64,000 bases of DNA from a virus. This document shows, piece by piece, positions 2,763-47,796 of the stretch (position 1 is its first letter; each line of letters starts with the position of its first letter). The notes beneath the pieces were generated by a model that searched no databases, was not told the origin of the DNA, and saw only the letters and a program-made list of their open reading frames with translations. The DNA lies in the IMG/VR virus record IMGVR_UViG_3300029305_006397. One strand, given 5' to 3'. A program made the position numbers and the translations under genes.

Positions 2763-2792
2763 GGATTTGTACCTCTTTCATTGAATTTTAGA

Positions 2793-3814: not shown

Positions 3815-3900
<86 letters not shown>

Positions 3901-3978
3901 AGATTGGTGGGCCTTAACGTCGGCCCAAACGACAGATGGGTTTATGCGCTGCGTAACCTCTTTTGCTCTTAACCGCGA

Positions 3979-4061: not shown

Positions 4062-4174
4062 GCCTAGTATGGCATGCCGTTCGGCTTACGACGGCCATAA
4101 CGCCGGATTTAGGAAATCACCCAAGAAAGGAGGTGTACATATGAAACCGTATCTCACCCGGAATCAGATGTAAG

Positions 4175-4250
4175 TGGTGAAAGTGGCGGGATTCGAACCC
4201 GCGACTCACAGATTAAAAGTCTGTTACTCTACCGACTGAGTTACACTTCC
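4175..4250 (-). tRNA. tRNA-Lys (anticodon TTT)
   Basis: Acceptor GGAAGTG/CACTTTC, loop CTTTTAA, T-loop GGTTCGAATCC, encoded CCA. First gene of the leftward array. Confidence 0.9.
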
Positions 4251-8800: not shown

Positions 8801-9247
8801 TCAATAAGGGCCTCGATAAATCTTGCCAGTGAAGTTGCCGTTTTTATCCTGCTCCCATATACAATCATACATACCGATTAAACGATTTCTGTATACCTGG
8901 CTGGGTTCGTTACCTTCGTAAATCTTGTCGTCCTTATATCTGATTTTATCGTATTCATATCGGTTCCAGTCGATGATTTTTGCCACAGGCAGAGGATGTT
9001 GTTTAATGATTTTGCGATACTTACCATCGCTATACCATTCATTGATCTGGCGTTTCTCGAAATGCTCAATATCCCACTTCCAGCTTTCGATATCGACAAC
9101 GCCCTGGGGGATGGGATCTTCAGGAAGATAATAGAGCGTTTTCCTGATCTCGGCGGCACGGGCATTGGTTTCTCTGGTTTTCTTATTCTGCGCAGCGGCA
9201 GCTGCGCCCCAAAGGAAAAGACCTGCGAGAAGTTTAATCATCAACAT
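8801..9247 (-). CDS. hypothetical secreted/membrane-anchored protein (148 aa)
   Basis: AAAGGAG SD before the ATG at 9245-9247. N-terminal signal-like MLMIKLLAGLFLWGAAAAA. Confidence 0.6.
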   Translation of the reverse strand: MLMIKLLAGLFLWGAAAAAQNKKTRETNARAAEIRKTLYYLPEDPIPQGVVDIESWKWDIEHFEKRQINEWYSDGKYRKIIKQHPLPVAKIIDWNRYEYDKIRYKDDKIYEGNEPSQVYRNRLIGMYDCIWEQDKNGNFTGKIYRGPY

Positions 9248-9257: not shown

Positions 9258-10061
9258 TCAAATATATTCAAGACCAAGTTCCACGCTATTGAAAATGCTT
9301 TCTACTTCGGTATCCATGATGCCAATATACTTTAGTGTAACTTGCGGACTGGAATGACCAAACGCCTGTTGAAGTATAACCAGTGCTTTAGACTTATCTT
9401 CTGCGTTGTGCCATCTCCAATAGCCCCACGTTTTTCTCAGTGAATGCGACCCGATATTTTGTTTGATTCCAGCTTCCGCCGCTGTATCTTTTATAACTCT
9501 CCAGAGATATTTAGATTCAATCGGATCGTTTCCCTTTTGAGAAGGAAAAAGGTAATCGTCTAAATTATCTATTGGGTATTCTGAAATGAAATTCATAATT
9601 GCAGCCTGTACAGTTTGATTGAAAAACAGCTTTACAAATTTCTTTTGCTTCTTTTGCTTTTGCGGTTGCAAGGCATAGAATTGTTTAAAAGCAAGGTTTC
9701 CGGCATTATTTCGTTCGAGAAAGAACGACCAGCGCAAAGTGCGAAGATCGGATGCCCGAACACCAACATTGATTCCGATCAAAAACAGTAGCTTGTTTCG
9801 CGAAGCAGTTTTTTTGCGACATACGCCAGAAGCTGACGTAATATGTTTATCAAATATGGCGATCATCGCCTGAATTTCTTCCTGGGTGCGAAATGCGTAC
9901 ACTTCTGAAGATTCGCCTGCAATTTTATTATTGCGGCTTTTATTGATCGAACCATCCAGATTGTACTTGACTTTCTTTTTCTGTTTACCGCCCTGCAAAA
10001 CGCTAAGAGGAACGATGTTTGAAGTGTCCCGTTCAATCGGGAAAGCGACCACATTATTCAT
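9258..10061 (-). CDS. tyrosine recombinase / phage integrase
   Basis: Catalytic boxes GVRASDL (Arg I), HSLRKTWG (His-x-x-Arg), GHSSPQVTLKYIG (His/Tyr). The start chosen is the ATG at 10059-10061, overlapping the upstream stop; the track ORF extends to 10187. Confidence 0.85.
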   Translation of the reverse strand: MNNVVAFPIERDTSNIVPLSVLQGGKQKKKVKYNLDGSINKSRNNKIAGESSEVYAFRTQEEIQAMIAIFDKHITSASGVCRKKTASRNKLLFLIGINVGVRASDLRTLRWSFFLERNNAGNLAFKQFYALQPQKQKKQKKFVKLFFNQTVQAAIMNFISEYPIDNLDDYLFPSQKGNDPIESKYLWRVIKDTAAEAGIKQNIGSHSLRKTWGYWRWHNAEDKSKALVILQQAFGHSSPQVTLKYIGIMDTEVESIFNSVELGLEYI

Positions 10062-11931: not shown

Positions 11932-12179
11932 TTGTTTTTCTCCTTTACCATATCGGCCTGTTTTCTGCAATTCAAGGCATATTCCAGGCTGAAATTATCC
12001 AGATGCCCATAGATACTTAAATCTCTGGCATTCTGCATACAGGCATAGAGCAGCAAAAATCTTTCATTTCGATCTTCATCGCCAACCTCATCCAAAGCAT
12101 TACAGATACAGTTAAGCTCCTCGGCTGACAAACAGACGACTGCTTTTCTTTCCACCTTGGAAACACTATTAATAATCAT
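11928..12179 (-). CDS. hypothetical protein (83 aa)
   Basis: Track ORF. GGAGGC SD; TAAATG junction. Confidence 0.6.
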   Translation of the reverse strand: MIINSVSKVERKAVVCLSAEELNCICNALDEVGDEDRNERFLLLYACMQNARDLSIYGHLDNFSLEYALNCRKQADMVKEKNK

Positions 12180-12389
12180 TTATTCTGCCTCCGTCCATAT
12201 ATCTTTTTCCTGAATAGATGGAATTTCAATTTTTGTTTCGCGCCCATATTTATCTTTGACGTAGAAAATATATTCTATATCTCTATCACCGGAAACGATA
12301 TAGCCTATAGATGCTACAGATCCTACACCGTGCAACATTTCATACGCTTGCAAAAACGCAATAATTTGACTTGTACTTGCAGTTTTCAT
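12180..12389 (-). CDS. hypothetical protein (69 aa)
   Basis: Track ORF. GGAGGT SD. Confidence 0.6.
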   Translation of the reverse strand: MKTASTSQIIAFLQAYEMLHGVGSVASIGYIVSGDRDIEYIFYVKDKYGRETKIEIPSIQEKDIWTEAE

Positions 12390-29287: not shown

Positions 29288-29383
29288 AAGTGTTTCCTCC
29301 TATCTTTCCTTATGCGTTTGGCTTTAGGGGCTTGTGACCTTATGCCTTGCCGCATTAACAGGGCTTATGCCCTGCCACTCTGC

Positions 29384-29569
29384 TTAATCTCGATTGGAAA
29401 GCTCCGTGTGATAGATATGCACACTCTGAAGGCGTCTGCTTCCAAATTTCCGTCGAAATTCCTCTTTCGCATCTTTCATGTTTGCCTTGCTACCGTTTCG
29501 ATGATCGCTTACATACTCAAATTCTCCGTAATCGTGACCATCATCATAAAGCGCAATGTAGTTTTTCAT
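29384..29569 (-). CDS. hypothetical protein (61 aa)
   Basis: Track ORF. AGGAGGC SD. Confidence 0.55.
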   Translation of the reverse strand: MKNYIALYDDGHDYGEFEYVSDHRNGSKANMKDAKEEFRRKFGSRRLQSVHIYHTELSNRD

Positions 29570-32038: not shown

Positions 32039-32107
32039 CCATACCCACGCCCCGGCAGGGCGTGACGCTCACGGCTTAAATGGCTTTTTATAGTCGCCGT
32101 GACGACT
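32039..32107 (-). ncRNA. pistol ribozyme (Pistol-f)
   Basis: AGUCG-UCACGG-CGACU hairpin. The loop is complementary to the downstream CCGUGA (pseudoknot). Then GCG, P3 UCACGCCC/GGGCGUGG, G/U, AUGG pairing with CCAU. Same spacing as the env25 pistol as I recall it. Cut is between 32044 and 32043. Confidence 0.75.
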
Positions 32108-32441: not shown

Positions 32442-32507
32442 TTGAACCCGCCCCAAACGGGGCGACGCTTTGGGCCTAATCAACTATTTAAAGTCGCCCA
32501 AACGACT
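32442..32507 (-). ncRNA. pistol ribozyme (Pistol-g)
   Basis: AGUCG-UUUGGG-CGACU-UUAAAUAGUUGAUUAGG-CCCAAA-GCG-UCGCCCC-GUUU-GGGGCGG-G/U-UCAA. The linker UUAAAUAGUUG is identical to the env25 pistol as I recall it. The pseudoknot and P2 covary with Pistol-f. Cut is between 32447 and 32446. Confidence 0.8.
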
Positions 32508-33930: not shown

Positions 33931-34149
33931 ATGTACGATAAAGATAAAGCGATAAAAAGACAAAACGATTTTAATAAATCGAATTATGATAGATTAAACA
34001 CGACTATACCGAAGGGACGCAAGGCCGATATAGTTGCATATTGCGATAGTATTGGAACCACGCCAAACGGCTTAATTAATGAATTGTTGCGGTTTGAATT
34101 GGGGTTTACACCTGAACAATGGAAGGAACGGGCGACGGCTGAAGAATAG
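33931..34149 (+). CDS. small RHH/Arc-like DNA-binding protein (72 aa)
   Basis: Track ORF. Paralog of 13282..13488 (NYDRLNTTIPKGRKADIVAYC...NGLINELL..ELG..PEQW). Confidence 0.55.
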   Translation: MYDKDKAIKRQNDFNKSNYDRLNTTIPKGRKADIVAYCDSIGTTPNGLINELLRFELGFTPEQWKERATAEE

Positions 34150-34254
34150 TAATACTGTATTTTTTGTTTAATGTTGCTATACTTTATAGCTAACCGTTTA
34201 CGGTTAATTATATGCGGTTAATTAACCGTGTTTGAAAATTGGGGCGAATTTTAG

Positions 34255-34278
34255 CGACGGCGCAAACCGTCGTTTTTT
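34255..34278 (+). terminator. intrinsic terminator
   Basis: CGACGG-CGCAAA-CCGTCG followed by TTTTTT. Confidence 0.55.
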
Positions 34279-34933: not shown

Positions 34934-34962
34934 TTGACAACTAACCTTATCTGTGTTAAAAT
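34934..34962 (+). promoter_or_regulatory. sigma70-type promoter TTGACA-17 nt-TAAAAT
   Basis: Consensus -35, 17-nt spacer, near-consensus -10. Points toward the rightward block. Confidence 0.55.
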
Positions 34963-35026: not shown

Positions 35027-35246
35027 TTATATTGCGTTGCTTATGTTTATGCGCAGCAACTAACATCTCCATGGAGCGCGGAAGCGCGACCGTAACCCCG
35101 GAGGGCGTAAGCCCGTAGGTCGTAGCCCCCCTTCCCCAGAGGGAAGGTATGAAGCGCAGCGTAAGCAAGCGACCCCTGCTGCGCCCCACGCGCGGCAGTA
35201 TACTATAATCTTTCTAAGTTAATCTATATAAGTATTGAAGTGAAAA

Positions 35247-35268
35247 TTTCCACGCAAATCTGTGGAAA
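35247..35268. promoter_or_regulatory. inverted repeat TTTCCAC-N8-GTGGAAA (operator/iteron-like, DnaA-box-like half sites)
   Basis: Read directly. Repeated at 35290-35310. Confidence 0.45.
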
Positions 35269-35289
35269 AAAACGCACCCTCTATAAATA

Positions 35290-35310
35290 TTTCCACAAAA
35301 TCGCGTGGAT
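35290..35310. promoter_or_regulatory. inverted repeat TTTCCAC-N8-GTGGA(T)
   Basis: Second copy, 36 nt before the TTG start of 35346. Confidence 0.45.
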
Positions 35311-35345
35311 TTTTTATCAGAGGCTGAAAGGAGGGAAACATGTGA

Positions 35346-36197
35346 TTGGATTTTCAAGATAAAGACAAAACTGAATATCCTGAAACACGAAATAAAGAGC
35401 TAAGTTATTATCAACAACGTTTTTTGAAACTGCCAAGAATGATAATCGAAAATTTCAACATCGGAGATCAGCGTCTAGCTGTATATACTTATTTGGCAAT
35501 ACGATGTGGACTTGATTATAAAGTTGACACAGATTTAAAAACGATCATTCTTTCTTTCGGTAAAAAACCCGATAGACATCCAGGTCAAATAAATGATAAA
35601 ACTGAAAACTCCTTATCAAAACTGATCGAGCTTGGGTATATAAAAAAGTTAAGCCAGGATTGCGATTTAAATGTCAATCAAACCTTCTTTTTCGATCAGG
35701 AATGGATAGATAACAATTGCCCTCAATTCACGATTGCTTATATAGACGAAATCGAACGAATACTGAGCAGTGACATTTCAAATAAAGACATCACCCTTTT
35801 AGTGTTCGCTTATTTAAGATTAAAGATACACAGGCGTCCAAATTCTATGCCAAAGAAATATTGGGGAAATCAGGAAGGCTATAAGGCCGATAATCCAGAG
35901 GTTTATAACTGTTATTATCGAGACATTGCTAAAGAGCTTGGACTAACAGTTCATGTAGTTCAAAAGGCGGTTGATGCTTTAATTGAGATTGGCTTAATAT
36001 ATGCAGAAGAACTCCCCAGACATTTGGTGAAAAGCAGCAATGGACAAGAAAGATGGATGACTGGACAAACACTTTTTTGCAATACATACAAACGCGATGC
36101 AAAATATGAGTTTGTCAAAGGTAAACAGTATTATGAGAAAGAGATCAAAAATAAAAAGAAAATAATAGAACAAGCGAAAGGAGGTAACTCCATATGA
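35346..36197 (+). CDS. putative winged-helix DNA-binding protein (replication initiator or transcription regulator), 283 aa
   Basis: Track ORF with a TTG start 10 nt after AAAGGAGGG. Two HTH-like segments. Function is inferred from position and composition only. Confidence 0.55.
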   Translation: MDFQDKDKTEYPETRNKELSYYQQRFLKLPRMIIENFNIGDQRLAVYTYLAIRCGLDYKVDTDLKTIILSFGKKPDRHPGQINDKTENSLSKLIELGYIKKLSQDCDLNVNQTFFFDQEWIDNNCPQFTIAYIDEIERILSSDISNKDITLLVFAYLRLKIHRRPNSMPKKYWGNQEGYKADNPEVYNCYYRDIAKELGLTVHVVQKAVDALIEIGLIYAEELPRHLVKSSNGQERWMTGQTLFCNTYKRDAKYEFVKGKQYYEKEIKNKKKIIEQAKGGNSI

Positions 36198-36397
36198 ATA
36201 CGCAAAATCATACAGGTATTTATCCTGTAAGTGCTTTTACGACCAAAGATGATCCAGATTTAAAAGCGGAAGATTTTAACAGCGGTGCAGATTGGCGAGA
36301 AATACATTCTTTAATCAGGGACATATCAGACGATGATTGCTTTGCAGAATACGCTCATGATTTTTTTGAAGAATATGAATCGGTTATTGCTGATTAA
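36194..36397 (+). CDS. hypothetical acidic protein (67 aa)
   Basis: Track ORF. AAAGGAGGT SD. Confidence 0.55.
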   Translation: MNTQNHTGIYPVSAFTTKDDPDLKAEDFNSGADWREIHSLIRDISDDDCFAEYAHDFFEEYESVIAD

Positions 36398-36456: not shown

Positions 36457-39342
36457 ATGCCTCTGGATAAGCAAATTCAAATTATCTCGACTGATACTGC
36501 GGGATTCTACAGCAACCATGAGGCAAGGTTGCATTTGAAAAATCATAAACTTCGAAGCGAAAGAAAAATACTTAAAAAAGGCGGAGTCGTTAAAAGAGCA
36601 AATGGAGACAAACGGATCGTTATTGGTTTAGATGAAATTGAAAATAAGCTTGCCGTATTTGGTATTTACTCTACTGACATAGAAGACATCATAAACGAAC
36701 GCTTTAATTTTGACGACTATACCTTAGAGGATATAGGCGAAATTAAGCATTTGATTTCCGATTACAACTTGAAAAAGAAGCTAATTGAAATCAAGAACGC
36801 TGCAATCAGCGAAAGCAAAGAGCAGCTTTTGAAGCTCTTGGCGAATAAAGTCCAGGAGAACGTAAGCTCAAATGGAAGGCATCATACGAGGTACTTGAGA
36901 GAGAATAGCGTTGTAAACAGTAATATCATTTCGGTATTTGATTCGTCCTTTACGAGAATGATCGGAGCAAAGGAAAATGAATTATGCGAAGATTTTATGG
37001 TGATTCAGGTATTTTACTTTGATGTATTGAAAGATATTCTGTATCATGGGTATACATACAAGGGCGAGAAATATATTTATTTTACTTCATCTGCCGGACA
37101 GATCAGGACAAAAAAAGCGGTTTTTGTAAAAGAAAAAATCTGGAACGAGCATGAGCGTACAATTATGTGTGGATTAACGCTTGACGAGATAAATCGCAAG
37201 GGAGGTAACAATCCCAATAAGCATCTGGCTTATATGGCTTTGAGCAATTCAGCCACTGATTTGTGGCCTGAGTTCGATATTGATAAAGCCATTGTAATCG
37301 ATGATTTTGAAACCAATGTATTTGGAACCTACGATCTCGTGGATGATGCGGACTATACTATTACCAGGGTTTCAGATTTTGTTCCTATATCTCATACAGA
37401 TGGCGCTGGTATGATACTCCCCTGTGCCTTTGGAAAGACCCAGAAAAATAAAATGGTTCGATTACCGTGGATTAAAGGATTGCTTGGCGTTTTTGATTTT
37501 AGGAAGTTTATAATTGATCAAGGAGCTTCGCCAGTAATTCGAGATATTTACGGAAAAGAACACAATTTGATTTCCGAAGATATCCAGGTAGTTTTCACCA
37601 AATCTCAGCATAAAATGTGGAAATACTATAACTCCTGGAACGAATATAAAGCGGCTTATAAGAAATATGGTTGTACTGCCGGATATACCAATGAAGAAGA
37701 GTTGAATATTCCTAATGCGTCCATCAACTATCAAATGCTTCAAACACTGACGGATATTACTCCGGAAGAGATTTTAAAAATTGCAAATAAATCTATTGGC
37801 TGTTTGGAAAATATGACGAGCAGTATAGATAACATTCGAGCAGCATTTGGTGGAGCAAATTATAATCAGGATAAGAGTAGTTTGAACAAAGCATTAGATT
37901 TATACCCTGATCTATTAAACGATGATTGGATTAAGAGAACCCTCCGGGCAATTCGCGATAGCTTGATCAAGGATTATAAAGCTGGAAAATTGAGAGTGCG
38001 AGGCAAATACACATTCTTACTCCCTGATTTTTATGCTGCATGCCAATATTGGTTCCTTGGGATCGAGGAACCGGAAGGGCTTTTGCAAGATGGAGAGGTA
38101 TTTTGTTGGTTATTTCCTGAAAGCGAAAAATTAGATTGCTTGCGAAGTCCTCATTTATATCGCGAACATCCTATTCGCAGGAATGTCGCATGGATAGGTT
38201 ATAAAGAAAGACAAGCCAAGATCAGAGAATGGTTTGGTACAAACGCAGTTTATACGAGCTGCCATGATTTGATCAGCAAGATTTTGCAGTTTGATGTTGA
38301 CGGAGATAAGAGTCTGGTGGTGGCAGATAAAACTATTATTGACGTTGCAGAGCGTAATATGCAAGGAATTGTTCCTTTGTATTATAACATGCGTAAAGCT
38401 TCTCCAGTGCAATTGAATAACGAAACGATCTATAACGGGTTGAACGCAGCATTTGTTGGCGGTAATATTGGAATATACAGCAATAATATTTCAAAGATTT
38501 GGAATAGTGAAGTTTTCATAAGCGGCAGCAATGAAGAACGTCGGGAAGCATTGGATATTATTAAGTTGCTTTGTATGGAAAATAATTTCGTTATCGATTA
38601 TGCCAAAACTCTGTATAAACCAGAACGCCCTAAGCACATTCACGAAAGAATCCTGGCCTTTACAAGAAATAAGCTTCCTCATTTTTTCGTTTATGCTAAA
38701 GACAAGCTGGACGATCAAGTGGAAAAACGCAATGGCAGTTTCGTAAATCAGTTGGATGATATAATACCTGTCCCCAGGTTCCATTTCAAAAAACTTGGTT
38801 TAGAAAAAGTTGAACATAGGTTTTTAATGCATGATTCAAATTGCACTGCAAGAGTAGCTTTTACAGATTCGGGTAAAATCATTTCAGAAGAGACAGACCC
38901 TTTAATTTTGGCGTACCATGCATTAAATAAAAAATATTTTTTGGACTTGGGAGAAGTATTACAGGTGAACTATTGCAATACTGAGTTGATATCAATATAC
39001 GCTAAAAATGGTGCTCTTGCCAAGAAGCAGCAAATGATCGAAGAAACGAAAAGCATTCTATCTGAATTTGGATATAATCAAAATCAAATTGTAGATATTT
39101 TAGTCGATTATGTGTATGGGAAAAATAGGTCGAATGCAAAAGCACTGCTATGGCTTTGCTATGGCGATTCGATTTATAAGAATATGCTACAATATTTAAT
39201 TCCGGATTTTAAGACGATACAGTGCGTAGATTGCGATGCATTATTTTCTGTTTCTGCTAAAAATCAATATGCATGCCGTTGTCCAGAATGTGCTAAAAAG
39301 CAGAAAAAGGCCGAAAGGCAATTAAAAAAGATGCTGTCTTAA
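36457..39342 (+). CDS. putative single-chain two-barrel RNA polymerase (YonO / RdRP-like), 961 aa
   Basis: CLRSPHLYREHPI ... 40 aa ... FDVDGDKSLVV (DVDGD at 38293-38307) parallels NRAPTLH ... NADFDGD of beta-prime and DxDGD of RdRP/YonO. C-terminal CxxC...CxxC zinc ribbon. ATG follows GAAGGTG (track start 36427). Confidence 0.5.
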   Translation: MPLDKQIQIISTDTAGFYSNHEARLHLKNHKLRSERKILKKGGVVKRANGDKRIVIGLDEIENKLAVFGIYSTDIEDIINERFNFDDYTLEDIGEIKHLISDYNLKKKLIEIKNAAISESKEQLLKLLANKVQENVSSNGRHHTRYLRENSVVNSNIISVFDSSFTRMIGAKENELCEDFMVIQVFYFDVLKDILYHGYTYKGEKYIYFTSSAGQIRTKKAVFVKEKIWNEHERTIMCGLTLDEINRKGGNNPNKHLAYMALSNSATDLWPEFDIDKAIVIDDFETNVFGTYDLVDDADYTITRVSDFVPISHTDGAGMILPCAFGKTQKNKMVRLPWIKGLLGVFDFRKFIIDQGASPVIRDIYGKEHNLISEDIQVVFTKSQHKMWKYYNSWNEYKAAYKKYGCTAGYTNEEELNIPNASINYQMLQTLTDITPEEILKIANKSIGCLENMTSSIDNIRAAFGGANYNQDKSSLNKALDLYPDLLNDDWIKRTLRAIRDSLIKDYKAGKLRVRGKYTFLLPDFYAACQYWFLGIEEPEGLLQDGEVFCWLFPESEKLDCLRSPHLYREHPIRRNVAWIGYKERQAKIREWFGTNAVYTSCHDLISKILQFDVDGDKSLVVADKTIIDVAERNMQGIVPLYYNMRKASPVQLNNETIYNGLNAAFVGGNIGIYSNNISKIWNSEVFISGSNEERREALDIIKLLCMENNFVIDYAKTLYKPERPKHIHERILAFTRNKLPHFFVYAKDKLDDQVEKRNGSFVNQLDDIIPVPRFHFKKLGLEKVEHRFLMHDSNCTARVAFTDSGKIISEETDPLILAYHALNKKYFLDLGEVLQVNYCNTELISIYAKNGALAKKQQMIEETKSILSEFGYNQNQIVDILVDYVYGKNRSNAKALLWLCYGDSIYKNMLQYLIPDFKTIQCVDCDALFSVSAKNQYACRCPECAKKQKKAERQLKKMLS

Positions 39343-39504: not shown

Positions 39505-39864
39505 ATGAATAAACAAAATATATCTAAAAGCTATACTAAAGCGATGTTGATTCGTGATACGGCAGATAAGTGTTTTTTGTCTGAAACTCCCGTTGAAAGA
39601 ATGGGAGTTAAACGAGCGTTAGCAATTACAACCGCCGTATACAACACTTTAGAGGCAAAAGTAAAAGAGCTACTTTCCTGTGCTGCTCCTGGAGTAGATA
39701 TAGCTATAAAGCTATTCGAAGGGATCACATTAAAGGGAAGGCATGTTCCTGAAATTATCAAGCAGAACAATCTAACGGGTGAAATGATGGTGTATAAGGC
39801 ACACATTAAACCGGAAGCGCAATTTTCAAAAAGACTTAGAGATTCGCTGATTGTTCAAAATTAA
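39505..39864 (+). CDS. HU/IHF-family (type II) DNA-binding protein
   Basis: MNKQN..., then GITLKGRHVPEIIKQNNLTGEMMVYKAHIKPEAQFSKRLRD fits the HU arm pattern (R-x-x-R-N-x-x-TGE ... P-x-F-x-x-x-K-x-L-x-D). GGAGGA SD. Confidence 0.6.
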   Translation: MNKQNISKSYTKAMLIRDTADKCFLSETPVERMGVKRALAITTAVYNTLEAKVKELLSCAAPGVDIAIKLFEGITLKGRHVPEIIKQNNLTGEMMVYKAHIKPEAQFSKRLRDSLIVQN

Positions 39865-39971
39865 TCCTATATATCCAGCGGAAACGCTGTTTATATATAA
39901 ACGGGTCGGGACTTTGAGATAGGTTCCGGCCTGACTTCTTTCATTCATATTTACACCTTTCTCTAGCTGCG

Positions 39972-40005
39972 CCACGGTTGTTAAAAGCAGCCGTGGTGTT
40001 ATTTT
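39972..40005 (+). terminator. intrinsic terminator
   Basis: CCACGGTTG-TTAAAAG-CAGCCGTGG followed by TGTTATTTT. Confidence 0.6.
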
Positions 40006-40030
40006 GAAGGTAACTGTGATGAAAAGTTTG

Positions 40031-40108
40031 ATGGAAGTAGTTTAAGGCAAAACAGCTGAAGGTACAAAACAAAAACGGAAGTTGAGGGTGCAAATCCCTC
40101 CTTCCATC
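40031..40108 (+). pseudogene. tRNA-like element lacking a recognizable anticodon arm
   Basis: Acceptor ATGGAAG/CTTCCAT. The D-arm GTTT-AAGGCA-AAAC is nearly identical to that of tRNA-Trp at 1510-1585. T-like arm GAGGG-TGCAAAT-CCCTC. The middle 29 nt do not pair. Confidence 0.35.
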
Positions 40109-40113
40109 CGTAT

Positions 40114-40191
40114 TGCGGAGTGGAGAAGCGGACTATCTCGCCAGCCTCATAAGCTGGAGATCGCTGGTTCGAATCCAGCCTCTCGCAACCA
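40114..40191 (+). tRNA. tRNA-Met-like (anticodon CAT) with one bulged nucleotide in the acceptor 3' strand
   Basis: D-arm GAGA/TCTC, arm CCAGC-CTCATAA-GCTGG, T-arm GCTGG-TTCGAAT-CCAGC. Acceptor TGCGGAG pairs with CTC(T)CGCA. Encoded ACCA. Confidence 0.6.
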
Positions 40192-40194
40192 CAT

Positions 40195-40269
40195 GTGGAG
40201 TTCGTATAATGGTTAGTACCTGAGATTTTCAATCTCAAAACAGGGGTTCAACTCCCCTACTCCTCACCA
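40195..40269 (+). tRNA. tRNA-Glu (anticodon TTC)
   Basis: Arm TGAGA-TTTTCAA-TCTCA, T-arm AGGGG-TTCAACT-CCCCT, encoded CCA. One acceptor mismatch. Confidence 0.8.
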
Positions 40270-40438
40270 GTTAGTTTTTTGCTGTAATGATCTTCGGACT
40301 TATGGCTTAAATCGCATGCTTCGGATTCCTTCGGGGCCGAGGCTTTATTTTGAAAAATTGTTCGCTAGTCAGTATGCGACTAATAAAATACTGATCAGAA
40401 ACTACCATCTGATTTCTTTTAAATCAGGTGGTTTATAT

Positions 40439-40515
40439 CAGGGTGTATATCAGTTTGGTAGATGGCCGCATTTGGGATGCGGAGGCCGCTGGTTCGAATC
40501 CAGTCACCTTGACCA
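40439..40515 (+). tRNA. tRNA-Pro (anticodon TGG)
   Basis: C1-G72 acceptor CAGGGTG/CACCTTG, arm CCGCA-TTTGGGA-TGCGG, T-loop GGTTCGAATCC, encoded CCA. Confidence 0.85.
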
Positions 40516-40557
40516 TGATCGTACTCAAGAATGCTACGGCGCTTGGGTCTATTTATA

Positions 40558-40584
40558 GGGTGGCGATGCCACCCTTTTATTTTT
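40558..40584 (+). terminator. intrinsic terminator inside the tRNA array
   Basis: GGGTGGC-GAT-GCCACCC followed by TTTTATTTTT. Confidence 0.6.
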
Positions 40585-40588
40585 ACAT

Positions 40589-40678
40589 GCTGATATGGCC
40601 GAGTCTGGCTTAAGGCGGTGGTCTTGAAAACCATTGGAGGTAACACTCACGGAGGTTCGAATCCTTCTATCAGCGCCA
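40589..40678 (+). tRNA. tRNA-Ser (anticodon TGA)
   Basis: Class II: acceptor GCTGATA/TATCAGC, loop CTTGAAA, long variable arm, encoded CCA. Confidence 0.85.
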
Positions 40679-40831
40679 GTATTAGCTCTCCTGCATAAAA
40701 ATGTGCTATTGATGACAGAAACAGGAGATAAGAGTCCCGCAAGTAGACACGCGGTTCAGTGCTCGTACAGGTGTTTTGTTGAGCAAGCAGTCTATTAAGA
40801 ATAAACACTGACAGCAGGAAAGACTGCATAT

Positions 40832-40923
40832 GGAGAGGTGGCTGAGTGGCTGAAAGCGGCACCCTGCTAAGATGTTTGCCCTGGTGACAGGGCACGAGAG
40901 TTCGAATCTCTCCCTCTTCGCCA
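40832..40923 (+). tRNA. tRNA-Ser (anticodon GCT)
   Basis: Class II: GGAGAGG acceptor, loop CTGCTAA, variable arm GCCCTGGTGACAGGGC, encoded CCA. Confidence 0.8.
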
Positions 40924-41094
40924 AACAAATGTGGTTCCGGTAGAGCCTGACGCATCAGTACCGACCTTGATGGAAAGGGTATCCCGTAGCTAAGACGAGT
41001 CCATAGGCGGGGATTTCTGCCACGTTGATTTAGCTCATCTGCCAAGTGCAGAAGGAGTTCCTGGATGTGTTACACAACTAGCGCATCCTGATTT

Positions 41095-41169
41095 GGTTCT
41101 ATAGTTTAGGGGCTAGAATGCCAGCCTGTCACGCTGGAGACACGGGTTCGATTCCCGTTAGAGCCGCCA
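41095..41169 (+). tRNA. tRNA-Asp (anticodon GTC)
   Basis: Arm CCAGC-CTGTCAC-GCTGG, T-loop GGTTCGATTCC, encoded CCA. Confidence 0.85.
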
Positions 41170-41228
41170 ATTTGCCTCACACGCCTCTTTGTCGTATGAC
41201 AAATGCGGACTAAGTGAGGTTTTTTCAT

Positions 41229-41304
41229 GGGGTTATAGCTCAGTTGGAAGAGCGCGTGCTTTGCAAGCATGAGGTCAAGGGTTCGAGACCCTTTAGCTCC
41301 ACCA
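41229..41304 (+). tRNA. tRNA-Ala (anticodon TGC)
   Basis: G3:U70 pair present, loop TTTGCAA, encoded CCA. Confidence 0.85.
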
Positions 41305-41306
41305 AT

Positions 41307-41378
41307 CGCCGGGTGGTGTAAATGTTAGCACCGCAGACTATGATTCTGCGAATAAAGGTTTAAATCCTTTTCCGGCGA
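41307..41378 (+). tRNA. tRNA with anticodon ATG (nominally His), no encoded CCA
   Basis: Acceptor CGCCGGG/TCCGGCG, D GTGT/GCAC, arm GCAGA-CTATGAT-TCTGC, T-arm AAAGG-TTTAAAT-CCTTT. A34 and the lack of a G-1 feature are atypical for His. Confidence 0.6.
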
Positions 41379-41711
41379 TTATGTTATCTATTTCCCAACA
41401 TACTGTCATGCGTGGGTGGAATAAGAAGAGACGGGCGTTTTCGGTCGGCATAAACCGAAGTTTGGCATTTGAGGTCAAATGAGTTTGATGAATGCAATCC
41501 CGTGCTGCTATGCGGTATTTGCAGGAGAACAACAGGGGTTTGCGTATAACCACAAGGCAGCTAGGTACAATCCGAAAGAAAAACGGTTATAAAGGGCGTC
41601 CCGCCACCTATATCCCAAGTGTGGAACGATAAAGCAGGTGTTTCGCTGCCTATAAATGCGAAATTTAATCAGCTCCGTGTTGGATATTTTGACATGCGGA
41701 GCATTTTATAT

Positions 41712-41787
41712 GGCATCATAGCTCAGTCGGTAGAGCAGCTGGCTGTTAACCAGCAGGTCAAGAGTTCGAGCCTCTTCGGTGCCTCCA
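41712..41787 (+). tRNA. tRNA-Asn (anticodon GTT)
   Basis: Arm GCTGG-CTGTTAA-CCAGC, T-loop AGTTCGAGCCT, encoded CCA. Confidence 0.85.
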
Positions 41788-41908
41788 CGGGTAGATAAGA
41801 TAACAAAACGCGCCACTACCCCAAGGCAGATACATACGCATTCGAGAAGCGCAATGGCTGCGATCAAATTGGCAGATGTGTAGGCGGCAGACTTAACTGT
41901 CTTTATTT

Positions 41909-41985
41909 GCTGTCATAGCTACAATTGGCAGAGCGACGGATTTGTAATCCGTAGGTTCAGAGTTCGAGTCTCTGTGGCAGCTCCA
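41909..41985 (+). tRNA. tRNA-Thr (anticodon TGT), second copy
   Basis: Acceptor GCTGTCA/TGGCAGC, arm ACGGA-TTTGTAA-TCCGT, encoded CCA. Confidence 0.85.
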
Positions 41986-42019
41986 AACTGTAGCAGCTAC
42001 GAAAGGTTAGGAATTTAGA

Positions 42020-43357
42020 ATGGATTTTATGAATGAAATATCGAAAATTGGACTTACGAAAGATCAATATGATGAATGCCTTCAATTGATTATTGACAAG
42101 AAGAATAATGTAATCGATATTGATTGGCAGGAAATCTGTGATCGATTCAGCTTGCCGATCACAACTGATTATTTGAGGAAAGCAAATGCAGGCGTATTCG
42201 GCGGAGCTTTTATAGCTGAGTATTTAAAGACAAAAGAAACATGCCAGGTAGAAACAAAGTATAGTGGCAGCAGTGAAATTTCAATTAATAAAGACGGTAA
42301 TTATACGAGCACGAAACTTATTGAAATGAATGAAGAGCAATCTAAAGATCCCTCTTATATATTGAAAGCACATGGATTTGATCCCATATGTTGGCAGCTG
42401 ATTAGTGCAAGAAATAATATTCGACAGGTTATTTCAAAAGCAGATGGCGTAGTTACTTTATATGCCAGCTTCATTACAGTGAGGCCTATATCAGAAGTTG
42501 AATTGCCCCTTGAAAAAATTGAAGAGTTTTTTGATAAACTTGATCGGAATTATTCTCTTCCAAGATTACAGGAGAATCGAATTTATCTGAGTGGAGACAA
42601 AATGCTTCTGATCGATATCGCTGACTTGCACATGAACTTACAGGCTTCGATGTTTACTACCGGAAACGAATATAATTGCGAGATTGCAGAAAAATTATTT
42701 TTTCATGTTATCGAAGATGTTTTAAACCGCACAAAGAATTATAAATTTGAAGAAATCAATTTTATTATTGGCGGAGATATGCTTAATGGAGACAATCTGG
42801 CTGGGACAACTACAAAAGGTACAGCTCAGGTGAGTGATTTGCATTATTATGACGCATATGAAAAATTATGTGCAATGACAATTAAAGCAATTGATTTGTT
42901 GAAGAGAAAGTGCAGAGTAAACGTGATTTATGTAATGGGGAATCATGATGAGTTAACCGGGTTTAAACTGGCAAAATATATTGATGCTTGGTTTAGAGAT
43001 GATGACGGAGTGACTGTTGATTATCAGCCGTTTGCACGAAAGTATCGTTTGTATGGTAAAACGCTTTTATGTTTTGCTCATGATGGTAAGATTCAAAAAT
43101 TACCAGCTATTATAGCGGATGAAGCAAGAGATTTGTGGGGAAAAGCTACAATGACAGAAGTGTTTTTGCAGCACTTGCATACTGAACAGGTATTAATCGA
43201 AGATAATAACATTAGGATTCAGCGCTTGCCTACTATTAGCGGTAGAAGCAAATGGAGTGCTGATCAGGGATATAATTCCCGGCGTCAATGTAAATCCTTT
43301 ATTTTTGATGCCGAGGAAGGATTGAAAGATATTTTATATACGACGATCCCGGCATAA
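42020..43357 (+). CDS. calcineurin-like metallophosphoesterase domain protein (445 aa)
   Basis: Motifs DIADLH, GGDMLNGDN, VMGNHDE, FAHDG, LQHLH in canonical order. Confidence 0.65.
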   Translation: MDFMNEISKIGLTKDQYDECLQLIIDKKNNVIDIDWQEICDRFSLPITTDYLRKANAGVFGGAFIAEYLKTKETCQVETKYSGSSEISINKDGNYTSTKLIEMNEEQSKDPSYILKAHGFDPICWQLISARNNIRQVISKADGVVTLYASFITVRPISEVELPLEKIEEFFDKLDRNYSLPRLQENRIYLSGDKMLLIDIADLHMNLQASMFTTGNEYNCEIAEKLFFHVIEDVLNRTKNYKFEEINFIIGGDMLNGDNLAGTTTKGTAQVSDLHYYDAYEKLCAMTIKAIDLLKRKCRVNVIYVMGNHDELTGFKLAKYIDAWFRDDDGVTVDYQPFARKYRLYGKTLLCFAHDGKIQKLPAIIADEARDLWGKATMTEVFLQHLHTEQVLIEDNNIRIQRLPTISGRSKWSADQGYNSRRQCKSFIFDAEEGLKDILYTTIPA

Positions 43358-43374
43358 GAGGAAGGTGAAGAGCA

Positions 43375-44403
43375 ATGGCAAGTTCCGGCAATAAGCCATT
43401 GAGAAAAAAAGAGGCCATTGCTACGCCAGAAACAATGAATTGTTTGCGATGCAATAAGCCTTTTGATAGAGATATTTTTTATGATTCAGATAGTGAACAA
43501 TTTCAGTCCGTTGGCAAAATCCCTTATTGTAAGGAATGTCTGGATGAAATGCGCCGACAGAATGTAAAGAAGTATAAGAACTTAGGTTATCGTAATTATG
43601 AGCGTAAAGCAGTTGAGCGAGTTTGCATGATGCTTGATTTGTATTATGCCGATAAGATTTTTGATGCCGCAATTGGAGAAAAAGAGAAGTGTCCAGACAC
43701 ACCGTTTATGTCTTGCTACATGAAACATGTAAAGCTATACCAATATCGAAAAAAGGATTACAACTCTACAATTGCAGACAGATACAAAGAGGCAAAAGAT
43801 AGCATACCAATTATGTCGATGAACATGCTTGAAGATGAAAAGGTAGAAGAAGAACTTCGAAAAGCGGAACAGTTTTTTGGAAGTGGGTTTGAACCTGAAG
43901 ATTATAAGTTTCTTTATGATCAATATACGGACTGGACAACCAGGCATGAATGCGAAACAAAGTCTCAGGAAGAGATGTTTAAATCGATCTGCTTTACCCA
44001 GTTGGATTTGCTGAAAGCAAATCGAATGGGATTAGACACAAAGGATTTGAATTTTACTTTTTTGAAGCAGCTTGAAGCTGCAAAGCTGCAGCCCAAGCAA
44101 AATGCAAGCGAAACTGTGGCGGACACTCAAACATTTGGTACTTTAATTGATAAATGGGAAAACACCCGGCCCATACCAGAAATCGATGAAGAATTGCGGG
44201 ATGTTGACAAAATCGGCCTTTATATAGATGTATTTTTCAGGGGACATTTGGCAAAAATGATGGGCTTGAAAAATGGCCTATCTAATTTGTATACGAAGTT
44301 TATTGAAAAGTATACTGTAAAGAAGCCTGAATATAAAGATAATGAGGACGGAGAAGCCTTGTTTGATATGATTTTTGGAAGATCGGATTTGGGCGATAAT
44401 TAA
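43375..44403 (+). CDS. putative terminase small subunit (342 aa)
   Basis: Called by position, immediately upstream of and coupled (TAATG) to the large terminase. N-terminal CxxC...CxxC. Confidence 0.45.
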   Translation: MASSGNKPLRKKEAIATPETMNCLRCNKPFDRDIFYDSDSEQFQSVGKIPYCKECLDEMRRQNVKKYKNLGYRNYERKAVERVCMMLDLYYADKIFDAAIGEKEKCPDTPFMSCYMKHVKLYQYRKKDYNSTIADRYKEAKDSIPIMSMNMLEDEKVEEELRKAEQFFGSGFEPEDYKFLYDQYTDWTTRHECETKSQEEMFKSICFTQLDLLKANRMGLDTKDLNFTFLKQLEAAKLQPKQNASETVADTQTFGTLIDKWENTRPIPEIDEELRDVDKIGLYIDVFFRGHLAKMMGLKNGLSNLYTKFIEKYTVKKPEYKDNEDGEALFDMIFGRSDLGDN

Positions 44404-46196
44404 TGGCTGATGATTTAAGAAAAACAAAATCAGAAAGACAGATCGCAAATGAAAAATCGAGAAGGATATTAGAGGGTGTAGCATATTGGTGTTCATTTTA
44501 CAGGCATAATCCGCATCGTTTCGCAAAGGATTATTTGAACATCACTTTGAAATTATTTCAGAAAATATTACTATATGCGATGATGTGCAATACGCACTTT
44601 ATGTTTTGGGCAAGCCGTGGCTTGGGTAAAACCTGGCTAACGGCTTTGTTTTGTGTGGTTCGTTGCATTTTATTTCCCAAGACAAAAATATGCGTAGCAT
44701 CTTCTACTCGAACGCAAGCAAACGAAGTTCTATCAAAGATCGTTGACGATTTCATGAAGAACTATGATTGGGGATCGGAGAATTTACGGCGAGAAGCATC
44801 ATATTTCAATGTTGGTGCAAATAAGGCCGAGATACATTTTTATAATGGTTCATGGATCAAGGTTGTAACTGCTGGCGATACAGGACGCGGTAATCGCGCC
44901 AATATCTTGATCGTAGACGAATTTAGAATGGTTGATAAAGACACTATTGATACTGTTCTTAAAAAATTTCTTACATCATCAAGGCAACCTGCTTATTTGA
45001 ACTTACCATCTTATAAAGATAAAGATGAATACATGGAGAGTAATATTGAGATTTACATGAGTTCATGCTGGTATAAGAGCCATTGGAGTTATAGCAAATC
45101 TCAGGCGTATACAGTGAATTTACTTGGAGCCAGAGATAGATACTTTGTTTGCGCCCTCCCCTATCAGATTGCAATTAAAGAAATGCTTCTGAAACGATCC
45201 GATGTAGAAGATGAAATGAGCGAAACCGATTTTGATGAAACGAAGTTTAATATGGAAATGGGATGTTTGCCATTTGGAGATACAGATGGCGCATTTTTTA
45301 CCTATGACGATGTTTCGCAAAGACGTAGATTAAAAACGGCTGTATATCCCACGACTTTGGTTGGCAATAGCAGAAATTTGAAGATTCCTGAAGTTGCGAC
45401 CAATGAACGCAGAATACTGTCTGTTGACGTTGCACTGATGGCGTCAAAGAAAACGAAAAATGACGCCAGCAGCATTATTATAAATAGCGCAATTCCGACA
45501 AATAATAATAGTTACACATCAAATATTGTTTATTTGGAAAATCACGAAGGATTAAATACGGATGAACTTGCTTTGATCGTGAGACGATTATTTGAAATGT
45601 ACAAATGTACAGATTTGGTTATAGATACTAATGGTTCCGGCCTTGGAGTTTACGACAAATTGATTCAAGACATGGTTGATCCGGCAACTGGAGAACTTTA
45701 TCGAGCTCTGAGTTGTTGTAATGATAAAGTAATGGCCGAAAGATGCAAAGTGCCAAATGCAAAGAAAGTAATTTGGAGCATAAAGGCTACAGCTTCATTT
45801 AATAATGAGATTTGTATTCTGTTGAGAAGCGGATTCAAAATGGGAAAGATCAATCTTCTTATTCGAGAGGACGAGGCCGACGAAGCTTTACGCGAAAGGA
45901 TCAAGGGGTTTGAACGTATGCCTGATTATGAAAAAATGCAATACAGGTTGCCATATATTCAAACAACTTTATTAATCTACGAACTAATCAACTTGGATCA
46001 TGAGGTAAAGGGAACGAACATACGAATAACCGAGAAATCAGGAATGCGTAAGGATAGGTATAGCTCTTTGGCATATAATTATTGGGTTCAGTGTCAGCTG
46101 GAAAGAGAACTTCTGCAGACAAGTAAAAATGGGTTTGATATTAAGGAATATGCCAATAAAATGCGTAGACTGAACAGAAGACCCACTACATATTGA
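44403..46196 (+). CDS. terL: terminase large subunit
   Basis: 597 aa. Walker A ASRGLGKTW, Walker B ILIVDEF, C-terminal nuclease-sized domain. Followed by a portal-sized gene. Confidence 0.8.
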   Translation: MADDLRKTKSERQIANEKSRRILEGVAYWCSFYRHNPHRFAKDYLNITLKLFQKILLYAMMCNTHFMFWASRGLGKTWLTALFCVVRCILFPKTKICVASSTRTQANEVLSKIVDDFMKNYDWGSENLRREASYFNVGANKAEIHFYNGSWIKVVTAGDTGRGNRANILIVDEFRMVDKDTIDTVLKKFLTSSRQPAYLNLPSYKDKDEYMESNIEIYMSSCWYKSHWSYSKSQAYTVNLLGARDRYFVCALPYQIAIKEMLLKRSDVEDEMSETDFDETKFNMEMGCLPFGDTDGAFFTYDDVSQRRRLKTAVYPTTLVGNSRNLKIPEVATNERRILSVDVALMASKKTKNDASSIIINSAIPTNNNSYTSNIVYLENHEGLNTDELALIVRRLFEMYKCTDLVIDTNGSGLGVYDKLIQDMVDPATGELYRALSCCNDKVMAERCKVPNAKKVIWSIKATASFNNEICILLRSGFKMGKINLLIREDEADEALRERIKGFERMPDYEKMQYRLPYIQTTLLIYELINLDHEVKGTNIRITEKSGMRKDRYSSLAYNYWVQCQLERELLQTSKNGFDIKEYANKMRRLNRRPTTY

Positions 46197-46215
46197 TGAT
46201 AAGGAGGTGAAATGC

Positions 46216-47796
46216 ATGAGTAAAAAACGAAATAGAAATCGACATTCATATACTAGACAGCCTAAAGAAACATATGTGGAAGCTTATAAAAAGCGCGATT
46301 ACCAAAAAGACGAAGCTTCATTTGAAAGAGCTCTTTCAGATGGCGGGAGATTAGATTTAGGAGCTTTTAAAAGGTTGATGCTCAGAGATATTTGCACGAA
46401 CACAAGTATTATTGAAAGTGGTTATTTGGGCAGAATACCTTTAAAGGAAGCCTGCAAAGCATTGAATAATCCAAGGAGAGAATGGCGCATTCTGCTTGAA
46501 GTTTCAGAGGAGCTTATGCATATTTCGCCTCATTATTATCGATTAAATACTATGTACAGCAATATGGCGTTATTCTGTTGGTGGATTGATTTATATGATG
46601 TGAAAGAAAATGCTCAGGTTGATACGATCAAGAAAACGTATGCGGCGCTATCTGCTAGAATTGAAAACATGCATTTAAAGCACGAGTTTTCAAAAATTAT
46701 GAGGGTATTACCCTATCAAGATATATATTGTGGTCTAGCTATTGAGAGTTCAACGGACTTTTTCTTTCAGAGAATAGACTATCGGATTTGTAAATTATAT
46801 CAGATTCAAGACGGACTATATAATTTCAAAATAGATTTGACAAAAATTAAGCCAAAGGAACTTGGAGCTTATCCTGATTATGTACAGCAAGCATACATTG
46901 AATATCATGATAAGATGGAAAAGGGGCTGCTTACTTCGTGTTGGTATAGCCCTCCTGCTGAAAGCCAGATTTGCGTAAAGCTTAACGATCAGTGGCCTTT
47001 CCCGTTTCCTCTTATGATTTCGTTGGTGCAGGACATTCTTGATTTAGAAATATATAAAAAGTTAAAGCTTCAATCTGCGAGAACTGATAATTATAAAGCA
47101 ATTATGGTTAAGGTTCCGATTGATGAAACTACGATTGATAAGCCGCTGTTAACGCCAGAAACTTTAAGTATTTTTGCAGAGATCAATAGAGAAAGTATGA
47201 CAGACGACATCGGTTTGTTGTACAATCTCGGCTCCGAAGGAGAGGCAATCAGCTTTAAGGATTCCAATAATACCAGGAATAATGTTTCTGATGCCGTAAA
47301 TGAGCTTTATAATTCTTCTGGCGAAAGCAGAGAATTATTTAACGGAAGCTCTTCTGGTACGGCAGTAACATATTCAGTAGAAAATGATTCTGGTTTTGTA
47401 TATGGGTTGTATCGTCAATTTGAAAGGTGGATCAATCGATATATCAAGTTAAAGAAGTATAATAAGACTGCTTTCAAATTCTATTTTTACTTATTGGATA
47501 TTACAATATTCAACAGAGACAACGTTTCAAAAAGATATAAAGAAGCATGCTCTCTGGGCGTAACTGTAATTGATAAATGGTTAGCTACGCTTGATATGAC
47601 TCCATCAAGAATGATGGGGTCTTATATTTTGCATGAAGATATTTTCGATTTTTCAAGTCATTTTAAGCCGTTAAGTTCTTCTTTTAATAGTTCTGCAGAA
47701 GATACTTCTTCGGGCAGGCCAACAAATGAAGAAAAGGGCAAACAATTGACAGAAGAAGGCGAAAAAACCAAAGACAATGAGAAAAACGATAGATAG
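46216..47796 (+). CDS. putative portal protein (526 aa)
   Basis: Called by position after terL and by size. ATG sits 8 nt after AAGGAGG. Confidence 0.6.
   Translation: MSKKRNRNRHSYTRQPKETYVEAYKKRDYQKDEASFERALSDGGRLDLGAFKRLMLRDICTNTSIIESGYLGRIPLKEACKALNNPRREWRILLEVSEELMHISPHYYRLNTMYSNMALFCWWIDLYDVKENAQVDTIKKTYAALSARIENMHLKHEFSKIMRVLPYQDIYCGLAIESSTDFFFQRIDYRICKLYQIQDGLYNFKIDLTKIKPKELGAYPDYVQQAYIEYHDKMEKGLLTSCWYSPPAESQICVKLNDQWPFPFPLMISLVQDILDLEIYKKLKLQSARTDNYKAIMVKVPIDETTIDKPLLTPETLSIFAEINRESMTDDIGLLYNLGSEGEAISFKDSNNTRNNVSDAVNELYNSSGESRELFNGSSSGTAVTYSVENDSGFVYGLYRQFERWINRYIKLKKYNKTAFKFYFYLLDITIFNRDNVSKRYKEACSLGVTVIDKWLATLDMTPSRMMGSYILHEDIFDFSSHFKPLSSSFNSSAEDTSSGRPTNEEKGKQLTEEGEKTKDNEKNDR

Follow-up and report, generated by a model that had tools for sequence, protein, structure and literature searches.

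The 64,000-nucleotide (nt) stretch of viral DNA analyzed here, in the following called the window, stems from the IMG/VR virus record IMGVR_UViG_3300029305_006397 and carries, at positions 36457-39342, a gene for a large protein with a DxDGD signature, which raises the question of whether the phage encodes an RNA polymerase (RNAP) of its own and, if so, what this enzyme transcribes. A preliminary description of the DNA had proposed a single-chain RNAP resembling YonO of the Bacillus phage SPbeta. According to Forrest et al. (2017, PMC5467207), YonO is an RNAP that strictly depends on DNA and strongly prefers DNA to RNA as template. Deletion of yonO silences 37 late genes of SPbeta, and the late gene cluster constitutes one operon (PMC5467207; review PMC8270828), with a YonO-dependent start located between yonN and yonK, upstream of yonK and of an unannotated non-coding RNA (ncRNA) (PMC5467207). 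The comparisons reported below make it very probable that the gene in the window encodes a YonO-family, single-chain DNA-dependent RNAP with two double-psi barrels, that it belongs to an SPbeta-like tailed phage or prophage and that the enzyme acts in late transcription in the way proposed here. The host is probably to be sought among gut or rumen Clostridia, whereas SPbeta resides in Bacillus.

When the protein was compared with the phage records in GenBank by tblastn, 39 records matched and 25 phage records covered at least 80% of the query; the matches included SPbeta-like phage records labeled 'yonO: DNA-directed RNA polymerase'. Identity amounted to 43.6% over 83% of the query for yonO of SPbeta/SPBc2 (E=0), to 46.5% for Clostridium phage D-1873 and to 39.8% over 97% for Psychrobacillus phage Perkons. 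In a four-way alignment with YonO-family proteins (44-47% identity), an N-terminal motif, SAGQIRTKK, RSPHL, FDxDGDK and a C-terminal CxxC...CxxC arrangement, all of them present in YonO, proved to be invariant. With YonO (PMC5467207; Forrest et al. 2017) the protein shares its make-up as one chain of ~100 kDa, the start motif and the order of the surrounding genes. It differs from YonO in its length (961 versus 839 amino acids (aa)), with extra segments at aa ~42-105, ~686-698 (VFISGSNEERREA) and ~805-850, all three of which are conserved in a large metagenomic clade of ~960-aa proteins, and in the sequence of the signature, which reads DVDGD in the window and DNDGD in YonO. Among the PHROGs, the protein falls into phrog_8308 (E=4e-231), a group of unknown function.

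The DxDGD signature is not a chance likeness, because the protein aligns with the YonO family over its whole length (E=0) and because the three aspartates are invariant in 166 of 166 related loci, apart from one base-call X. FDVDGDK of the window protein aligns with FDNDGDK of YonO. A YonO variant in which the aspartate triad is replaced by asparagines (3D>3N) is catalytically inactive (PMC5467207), and since the mutagenic primer given in the supplement of that study encodes F-N-N-N-G-N-K, the exchange targets DNDGD, that is, the motif that aligns with DVDGD. By homology to this verified triad, D613, D615 and D617 are predicted to hold the catalytic Mg2+ of the 961-aa enzyme. RSPHL[YF] is present in 164 of the 166 loci, and R563 and P565 are invariant in an alignment of 70 sequences; RSPHLY (aa 563-568) and DVDGD (aa 613-617) are indeed separated by about 40 residues, as the preliminary description had it. 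SAGQIRxKK, which is invariant in 165 loci, would belong to the beta-like barrel if the assignment made for YonO is followed (PMC5467207). At the C-terminal end, C923, C926, C942 and C945 are each conserved in at least 90% of 70 diverse homologues, YonO included, and profile-versus-PDB searches revealed a weak, non-significant likeness of this CxxC motif to ribosomal zinc ribbons.

The gene itself is an uninterrupted open reading frame (ORF) on the + strand that stops at 39342. Translation of 36457-39342 gives 961 aa plus the stop codon, so that the coordinates and the length proposed earlier are correct, and both CLRSPHLYREHPIRRNV and LQFDVDGDKSLVVADK are present in this translation. An alternative in-frame ATG at 36427 would yield a 971-aa form with ten additional residues. 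We prefer the ATG at 36457 because a Shine-Dalgarno sequence, AAGAAGGTG, lies 5 nt upstream of it and because the homologues in the four-way alignment begin at M-LNKQIxIYS, equivalent to this start. The window copy is intact; several homologous genes are interrupted. The RNAP gene of locus L047 contains a group I intron at 3297-3609 (Rfam, 62.5 bits), those of L042 and L046 contain insertions of ~1.2 kb, and in L085 (~12130-12360) and L086 an insertion of ~230 nt at the equivalent of window position 38598 splits the gene into ORFs of 720 aa and 185/204 aa. In phages Goe11, Goe14 and BUCT083, the gene is present as two halves, yonO_1 and yonO_2, with a GIY-YIG or hypothetical gene in between.

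In bacteriophage SPbeta, the genes are arranged in the order yonP-yonO-yonN-(gap)-yonK/J-...-yonG-yonF. The same succession of a small ORF, the RNAP gene, an HU-like gene, a non-coding gap, an exonuclease gene, yonG and a terminase gene is found in SPbeta, in Perkons, in D-1873 and in L084 and L085, the loci most closely related to the window, and an annotated stem-loop follows yonO in SPbeta at the very place where a terminator-like hairpin follows the stop codon of the window gene. GC skew and ORF orientation turn from leftward to rightward at ~33-34 kb; between 42 kb and 64 kb, the window genes all run in one direction and the GC skew is positive. The RNAP gene had been described as heading this rightward block; it does lie in the block, but as the third ORF of its operon, after ORFs for 283 and 67 aa. 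That it precedes the late structural genes is correct, as a late module with terminase and portal genes and SPbeta-like synteny is located downstream. The gene in the YonJ position matches Pfam Metallophos and the exonucleases of PHROG 704 and shows weak similarity to YonJ (E=0.006). Further along come the gene of a YonG homologue (32% identity, E=1e-51), whose L084 orthologue carries the Pfam domains YonG_N and YonG_C, a large terminase gene with Pfam and PHROG matches and a portal gene (PHROG 2739, E=1e-79).

We propose the following course of events. The host sigma-A RNAP would transcribe the operon consisting of the 283-aa ORF, the 67-aa ORF and the RNAP gene from the candidate promoter at 34934-34962. 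This assignment relies on a conserved consensus: the site is the best consensus match in a 10-kb scan (11 of 12 positions), and both hexamers as well as their 17-nt spacing are kept in L084, the closest relative, where the flanking bases diverge. The 961-aa enzyme would then initiate downstream of the HU-like gene and transcribe the co-directional genes of the rightward block, from ~40 kb onward through the remainder of the window. The resulting late transcript would start with a leader comprising a tRNA array and drum RNA and would continue through the exonuclease, YonG, terminase, portal and structural genes. A hairpin with an adjacent T/C-rich block at 39867-39999 may be regarded as the best candidate for the promoter or for a signal in the 5' leader. 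We infer the late-transcription role because the locus is syntenic with SPbeta, where the late genes depend on yonO as outlined above; transcription of the late genes or the tRNA arrays by the window polymerase, as already considered in the preliminary description, is suggested by homology and gene order.

The alternative that survives best accepts an active YonO-type RNAP and assigns to it a narrower or different regulon, which might consist only of the tRNA/ncRNA leader or of some of the genes, or a need for a phage cofactor in promoter recognition (the HU-like protein, the product of the 67-aa ORF or the winged-helix protein), the structural genes being left to the host RNAP. The 2017 study explicitly left unresolved whether YonO recognizes promoters unaided (PMC5467207), which leaves room for a cofactor, and possible cofactor genes are close by: 44 of the first 86 loci have a homologue of the HU-like ORF immediately behind the RNAP gene, a five-query search covering 166 loci and the window detected a + strand HU-like gene in 148 of the 167 sequences, and the winged-helix ORF and the small ORF are co-operonic with the RNAP gene and conserved in the closest relatives. 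Sigma-70-like matches are also present inside the late region (e.g., at 42093-42121); however, such promoter-like matches are not commoner than in shuffled sequences (35 versus 27.9 +/- 5.8). A restricted regulon is further at odds with SPbeta, where a single YonO-dependent start drives the entire 37-gene late cluster, and with the window itself, where the conserved block is present in a single copy and the genes behind it share direction and GC skew. We consider this alternative unlikely.

How the protein is to be classified was further addressed by profile and structure comparisons. It matches the Pfam family RdRP (PF05183; RdRP for RNA-dependent RNA polymerase) above the gathering score (39.4 versus 23.8 bits, E=4.3e-10), without any competing Pfam family at E<=0.1; the match covers aa 194-560 of the 971-aa form and profile positions 51-365 of 582, and PF05183 is also precomputed on many homologues. 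An AlphaFold2 model built from 41 homologues was submitted to Foldseek, a check that the preliminary description had recommended. In the PDB, the only significant matches were six structures of plant RDR2 (E 3e-8 to 2e-4; 690-929 aligned columns, TM-scores 0.31-0.39, identity 12-13%), and the top matches in BFVD were phage proteins labeled RdRP (E=2e-17 and 5e-16). RDR2 (PDB 7w82/7roz/7rqs; PF05183) is a two-barrel single chain, an architecture predicted for the window protein as well. In the alignment of a 70-sequence profile with maize RDR2, three collinear pieces correspond to each other, SAGQIR to SASQLR, DvDGD to DLDGD and DyAKT to DFAKT, so that DxDGD, DxAKT and SAxQxR occur in the same order in both. 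The window protein differs from RDR2 in its C-terminal zinc-ribbon-like motif and its phage late-operon context.

Several points weigh against the reading as a two-barrel RNAP of the YonO family. The model is mediocre (mean predicted local distance difference test (pLDDT) 66.7, predicted template modeling score (pTM) 0.55), and segments 546-576 and 594-623, which carry the motifs, are below pLDDT 50, so that the barrel around DVDGD is not resolved in it. The match of the 70-sequence profile to maize RDR2 in the PDB is weak and by itself not significant (E=0.23), and sequence searches of the PDB with the single protein or a narrow profile found no polymerase. The PF05183 match spans the N-terminal and middle part of the protein and does not include the DxDGD loop; the C-terminal catalytic fragment (aa 530-728) alone has no Pfam match at E<=1, and neither has SPbeta YonO itself (L001 5782-8301). 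The Pfam assignment consequently rests on the N-terminal and middle region, and the Pfam annotation of the YonO family is uneven, since YonO is unmatched while the window protein passes the RdRP gathering score.

These results bring up an enzyme that copies or amplifies RNA, for example in a role resembling RNA silencing or in anti-defense. Such a function would agree with the name of the Pfam family, with plant RDR2, a true RdRP, as the closest solved structure, and with the label 'RNA-dependent RNA polymerase' on the homologues from Perkons, PMBT24 and TR-TP1/2. These annotations, however, stem from the Pfam name and not from tests, and the RNA-dependent labels on these phage genes are probably wrong, a naming artifact of the family. 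RDR2 copies RNA, whereas YonO, which is 44% identical to the window protein and its only close relative to have been characterized, is strictly DNA-dependent (PMC5467207); identity to RDR2 is only 12-13%, and the gene order fits late transcription. An RNA-copying enzyme is thus very improbable. That the motifs are coincidental and the protein has another fold, such as that of a primase, a helicase or a structural protein, can be dismissed almost completely in view of the full-length homology to YonO (E=0), the Pfam RdRP match above threshold without competitor and the fact that profile and structure searches returned RdRP-type proteins and no primase, helicase or other fold. The YonO-like single-chain RNAP proposed at the outset is therefore supported by the similarity to SPbeta yonO, PF05183, Foldseek, the triad alignment and synteny.

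Other RNAP types were also considered. The core of multi-subunit RNAPs resembles the window protein in the D-x-D-G-D triad (beta-prime NADFDGD) and in an R-x-P-x-L-H-like strand ~45 residues before it, and the two-barrel logic has been stated for YonO (PMC5467207). In contrast to the multi-subunit enzymes, the window protein is a single chain that is about four times smaller, and the YonO family has no detectable trigger-loop homology; it is encoded by one 961-aa ORF, with no separate beta or beta-prime genes. The protein matched no Rpb1 or Rpb2 Pfam domain at E<=1, and no RNAP chain was retrieved from the PDB by Foldseek at E<=10. As to T7-like single-subunit RNAPs, with their Pol I-like right-hand fold, there was no Pfam RNA_pol match and no T7-like structure among the Foldseek matches in the PDB and BFVD. 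Phage-encoded two-barrel enzymes of the DxDGD type that transcribe phage genes without host RNAP also include gp66 of crAss-like phages and the non-virion RNAPs of phiKZ and AR9, which are either very large virion proteins or multi-subunit assemblies. Their solved structures were absent from the Foldseek PDB matches at E<=10, and no sequence similarity to them appeared at the thresholds used, the comparison being made by Foldseek only. Table 1 compiles the features of the locus.

Table 1. Positions of the RNAP gene, its predicted motifs and the surrounding features in the window
Feature	Position	Strand	Basis
Candidate host sigma-A-type promoter, TTGACA-17-TAAAAT with TG	34934-34962	+	Consensus and conservation
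283-aa ORF, first in operon, weak winged-helix/MarR-like signal	35346-36197	+	Pfam, sub-threshold
67-aa ORF, yonP position	36194-36397	+	Positional analogue only
YonO-family single-subunit two-barrel RNAP gene (very probable)	36457-39342	+	Sequence, profile and structure-model comparisons
SAGQIRTKK, aa 212-220, basic motif of first (beta-like) barrel region	37090-37116	+	Inside PF05183 match; RDR2 'SASQLRG'
RSPHLY, aa 563-568, upstream strand region of catalytic (beta-prime-like) barrel	38143-38160	+	Conservation
DVDGD, aa 613-617, predicted metal-binding triad D613/D615/D617	38293-38307	+	YonO alignment, conservation, RDR2 DLDGD
CxxC-x15-CxxC zinc-ribbon-like motif, C-terminal	39223-39291	+	Cysteine conservation
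14-bp hairpin, terminator-like, weak T tail, directly after RNAP stop codon	39359-39389	+	Stem-loop after yonO in SPbeta
Divergent HU/DNABII-like gene, 119 aa (133 aa from ATG 39463), yonN position	39505-39864	+	Transitive homology
Conserved non-coding module, candidate YonO-type late promoter or leader	39867-39999	+	Shared architecture, nhmmer
Late-leader RNA region: 10 tRNAs, tRNA-like element (40031-40108), drum RNA (41483-41590)	40031-41985	+	ARAGORN, Rfam
Start of late operon: metallophosphatase/exonuclease (YonJ position), YonG homologue, large terminase, portal	42020-47796	+	Pfam, PHROG, YonG/YonJ similarity

The gene downstream of the RNAP gene had been named HU-like, and this holds for its orthologues more clearly than for the ORF itself. 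Fourteen of 22 positional orthologues match PF00216 (Bac_DNA_binding) at E<=0.01 (best E=2e-7), but the ORF in the window stays below the threshold (13.3 bits, gathering score 22.4, E=0.1). BLASTP aligned it with YonN in full-length register at 25% identity (E=0.005), and a profile-profile comparison with hhalign was weak (E=0.002, probability 13%). The window differs from SPbeta in a much more divergent HU-like neighbor.

Directly behind this gene, the non-coding module begins with a TATA-flanked 5-bp hairpin (39867-39901), followed by a variable GC hairpin (39902-39933), a T/C-rich block of ~30 nt, ACTTCTTTCATTCATATTTACACCTTTCTCT (39933-39966), and a strong hairpin with a T run (39969-39999). 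The first hairpin is flanked by TATA(T)A and TTTATATA; positions 2, 4 and 5 of the stem show covariation, and GNRA-like loops are frequent. This ordered architecture is found in many loci whose RNAPs are only 50-62% identical. An nhmmer model of the block had one match in each of 32 loci (E<=0.01), invariably on the + strand and 594-824 nt downstream of the end of the RNAP gene, and the 64-kb window contains a single match. Such a single-copy, strand- and position-specific pattern fits a signal for a phage polymerase that drives one long operon. It is conceivable, if rather doubtful, that the module including the block ACTTCTTTCATTCATATTTACACCTTTCT is the recognition and initiation signal of the polymerase of this clade and that the late transcript starts with the tRNA array and structured RNAs (drum and conserved inter-tRNA hairpins) ahead of the packaging genes.

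The following observations speak against such a function. No counterpart of the block was detected in SPbeta (nhmmer on L001-L003, even at E<=1000). The terminator-like hairpin at 39969-39999 stands between the block and the tRNAs and suits a promoter no better than the 3' end of the HU-like transcript. Read on the opposite strand, the block presents a Shine-Dalgarno sequence and an ATG. The element is equally compatible with the 3' end or a regulatory element of the HU-like transcript. A mini-ORF on the minus strand is an unlikely explanation of the block, as the frame, read by hand, comprises 5, 11 or ~37 codons in different loci. Two look-alikes noticed by eye in SPbeta (L001 ~9147-9172 and ~8935-8958) were discarded, as nhmmer returned nothing and blastn revealed no shared promoter region. 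On the SPBc2 record, the published SPbeta start (genome position 2225998) is only bracketed by the primer-extension primers, the forward primer at L001 9084-9107 and the reverse primer, located by eye and with one extra T, at ~9301-9326.

The non-coding gap at 39865-42019 is the equivalent of the SPbeta ncRNA gap. Its content is different: a leader of 10-11 tRNAs and drum RNA in the window as opposed to an ncRNA of ~1.7 kb in SPbeta. As the tRNAs and the drum RNA occupy this very gap, they are probably part of the transcript made by the window polymerase. tRNA arrays at the late-leader position are also present in L004, L084 and L085. The tRNA-like element at the beginning of the region (Rfam, 39.9 bits) is not called by ARAGORN and is conserved in L084 and L085. 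The drum RNA (Rfam RF02958, 62.1 bits, + strand) lies inside the tRNA array in a segment of ~180 nt that is absent from these two closest relatives, and Clostridium phage D-1873 has a drum RNA at the same relative place (L003 12368-12475). On the + strand, the tRNAs and spacers of 40517-41457 are 94% identical to L084 versus 80-81% for the flanking coding sequences, and 88% identical to L085 versus 71-77%; some spacers (e.g., 40680-40830) hardly differ among the three genomes. This conservation suggests a structured or processed RNA or a recent segment exchange.

Some further observations were made in the leader. In L085 (14280-14903) and L086 (9641-10264), the tRNA leader harbors an inserted GIY-YIG endonuclease gene, which separates the tRNA-Pro region from the conserved block at 40517-41457. 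The 28-nt sequence TTAGCTCATCTGCCAAGTGCAGAAGGAG (window 41030-41057, + strand) is identical at 27 of 28 positions to L001 10001-10028 (blastn E=2e-8) and is thus shared with the yonN-yonK gap of SPbeta, though protein identity between the two phages is only ~44%. The sequence folds into a 5-bp hairpin, in which L084 and L085 show compensatory changes (TCTGC/GCAGA to TCTAC/GTAGA). It was absent from the other loci searched even when up to six mismatches were allowed, and matched no Rfam family. We rejected it as a start-site element, as it lies inside the leader and not at the start site.

Upstream of the RNAP gene, the 283-aa ORF gave sub-threshold matches to Pfam MarR_2, HTH_24 and HTH_36 (E 1e-3 to 4e-3) and is conserved in the same position in L084-L086. 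The 67-aa ORF had no Pfam or PHROG match; a relationship to YonP was considered and rejected, as similarity to YonP or to the small ORF of Perkons was not detectable. The GC-rich 5' leader between promoter and 283-aa ORF (35030-35345, + strand) is 97% identical to L084 versus 80% for the adjacent genes, a likeness for which mosaic exchange could account. It contains several GNRA-capped hairpins with one compensatory pair, folds with -65.5 kcal/mol (z=-2.8), has no Rfam match and occurs, among the loci found, only in L084. At the orientation switch, a 72-aa ORF (33931-34149, + strand) belongs to phrog_13890 (E=3e-8, function unknown) and by eye resembles a ribbon-helix-helix regulator; a terminator-like hairpin (34253-34274) follows it. 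The leftward block contains a second array of 12 tRNA genes on the - strand (583-4250). An odd tRNA with a two-base 'anticodon' was called by ARAGORN at 3125-3210. Also in the leftward block and above the Rfam gathering scores are three Pistol ribozymes (32442-32507, 32039-32107 and 3617-3686), a type-P5 Twister ribozyme (29325-29384) and a RAGATH-36 RNA (839-1000), all on the - strand; Pistol and Twister-P5 copies occur in the leftward blocks of L084 and L085 as well.

An exhaustive profile search retrieved 1,612 representatives of 50%-identity clusters at E<=1e-3, 500 of them at E<=1e-30. Relatives are encoded on 350 IMG/VR contigs and in 174 GTDB species genomes, most of which belong to gut-dwelling Lachnospiraceae and further Clostridia of animals and humans. 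A JGI metagenome contains the exact RNAP sequence; the relatives include one with 86% identity and, on contigs of 100-165 kb, hundreds of ~960-aa proteins that are ~60% identical. The novelty and interest ascribed to the gene in the preliminary description were overstated: the family is large and its prototype was characterized in 2017 (PMC5467207), so that the element of surprise is low. A literature search within a limited collection found no paper on a YonO structure or promoter after 2017.

The enzyme of the window adds nothing categorical, being a further member of the known and experimentally characterized YonO family. Among the known relatives of cellular RNA polymerases, YonO-type enzymes are the smallest, and they serve as a model for the ancestral two-barrel core. 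The enzyme of the window falls into a well-sampled gut-phage clade of ~960-aa proteins, and the element that this clade has behind the HU-like gene provides a concrete candidate for the YonO promoter or leader; the 2017 study had left the promoter open. If the proposed function of the element is true, a two-barrel single-subunit RNAP would for the first time have a defined promoter, and such an enzyme would be shown to make tRNAs. With a tRNA array in the presumed late leader, the range of known transcripts of these polymerases would be extended.

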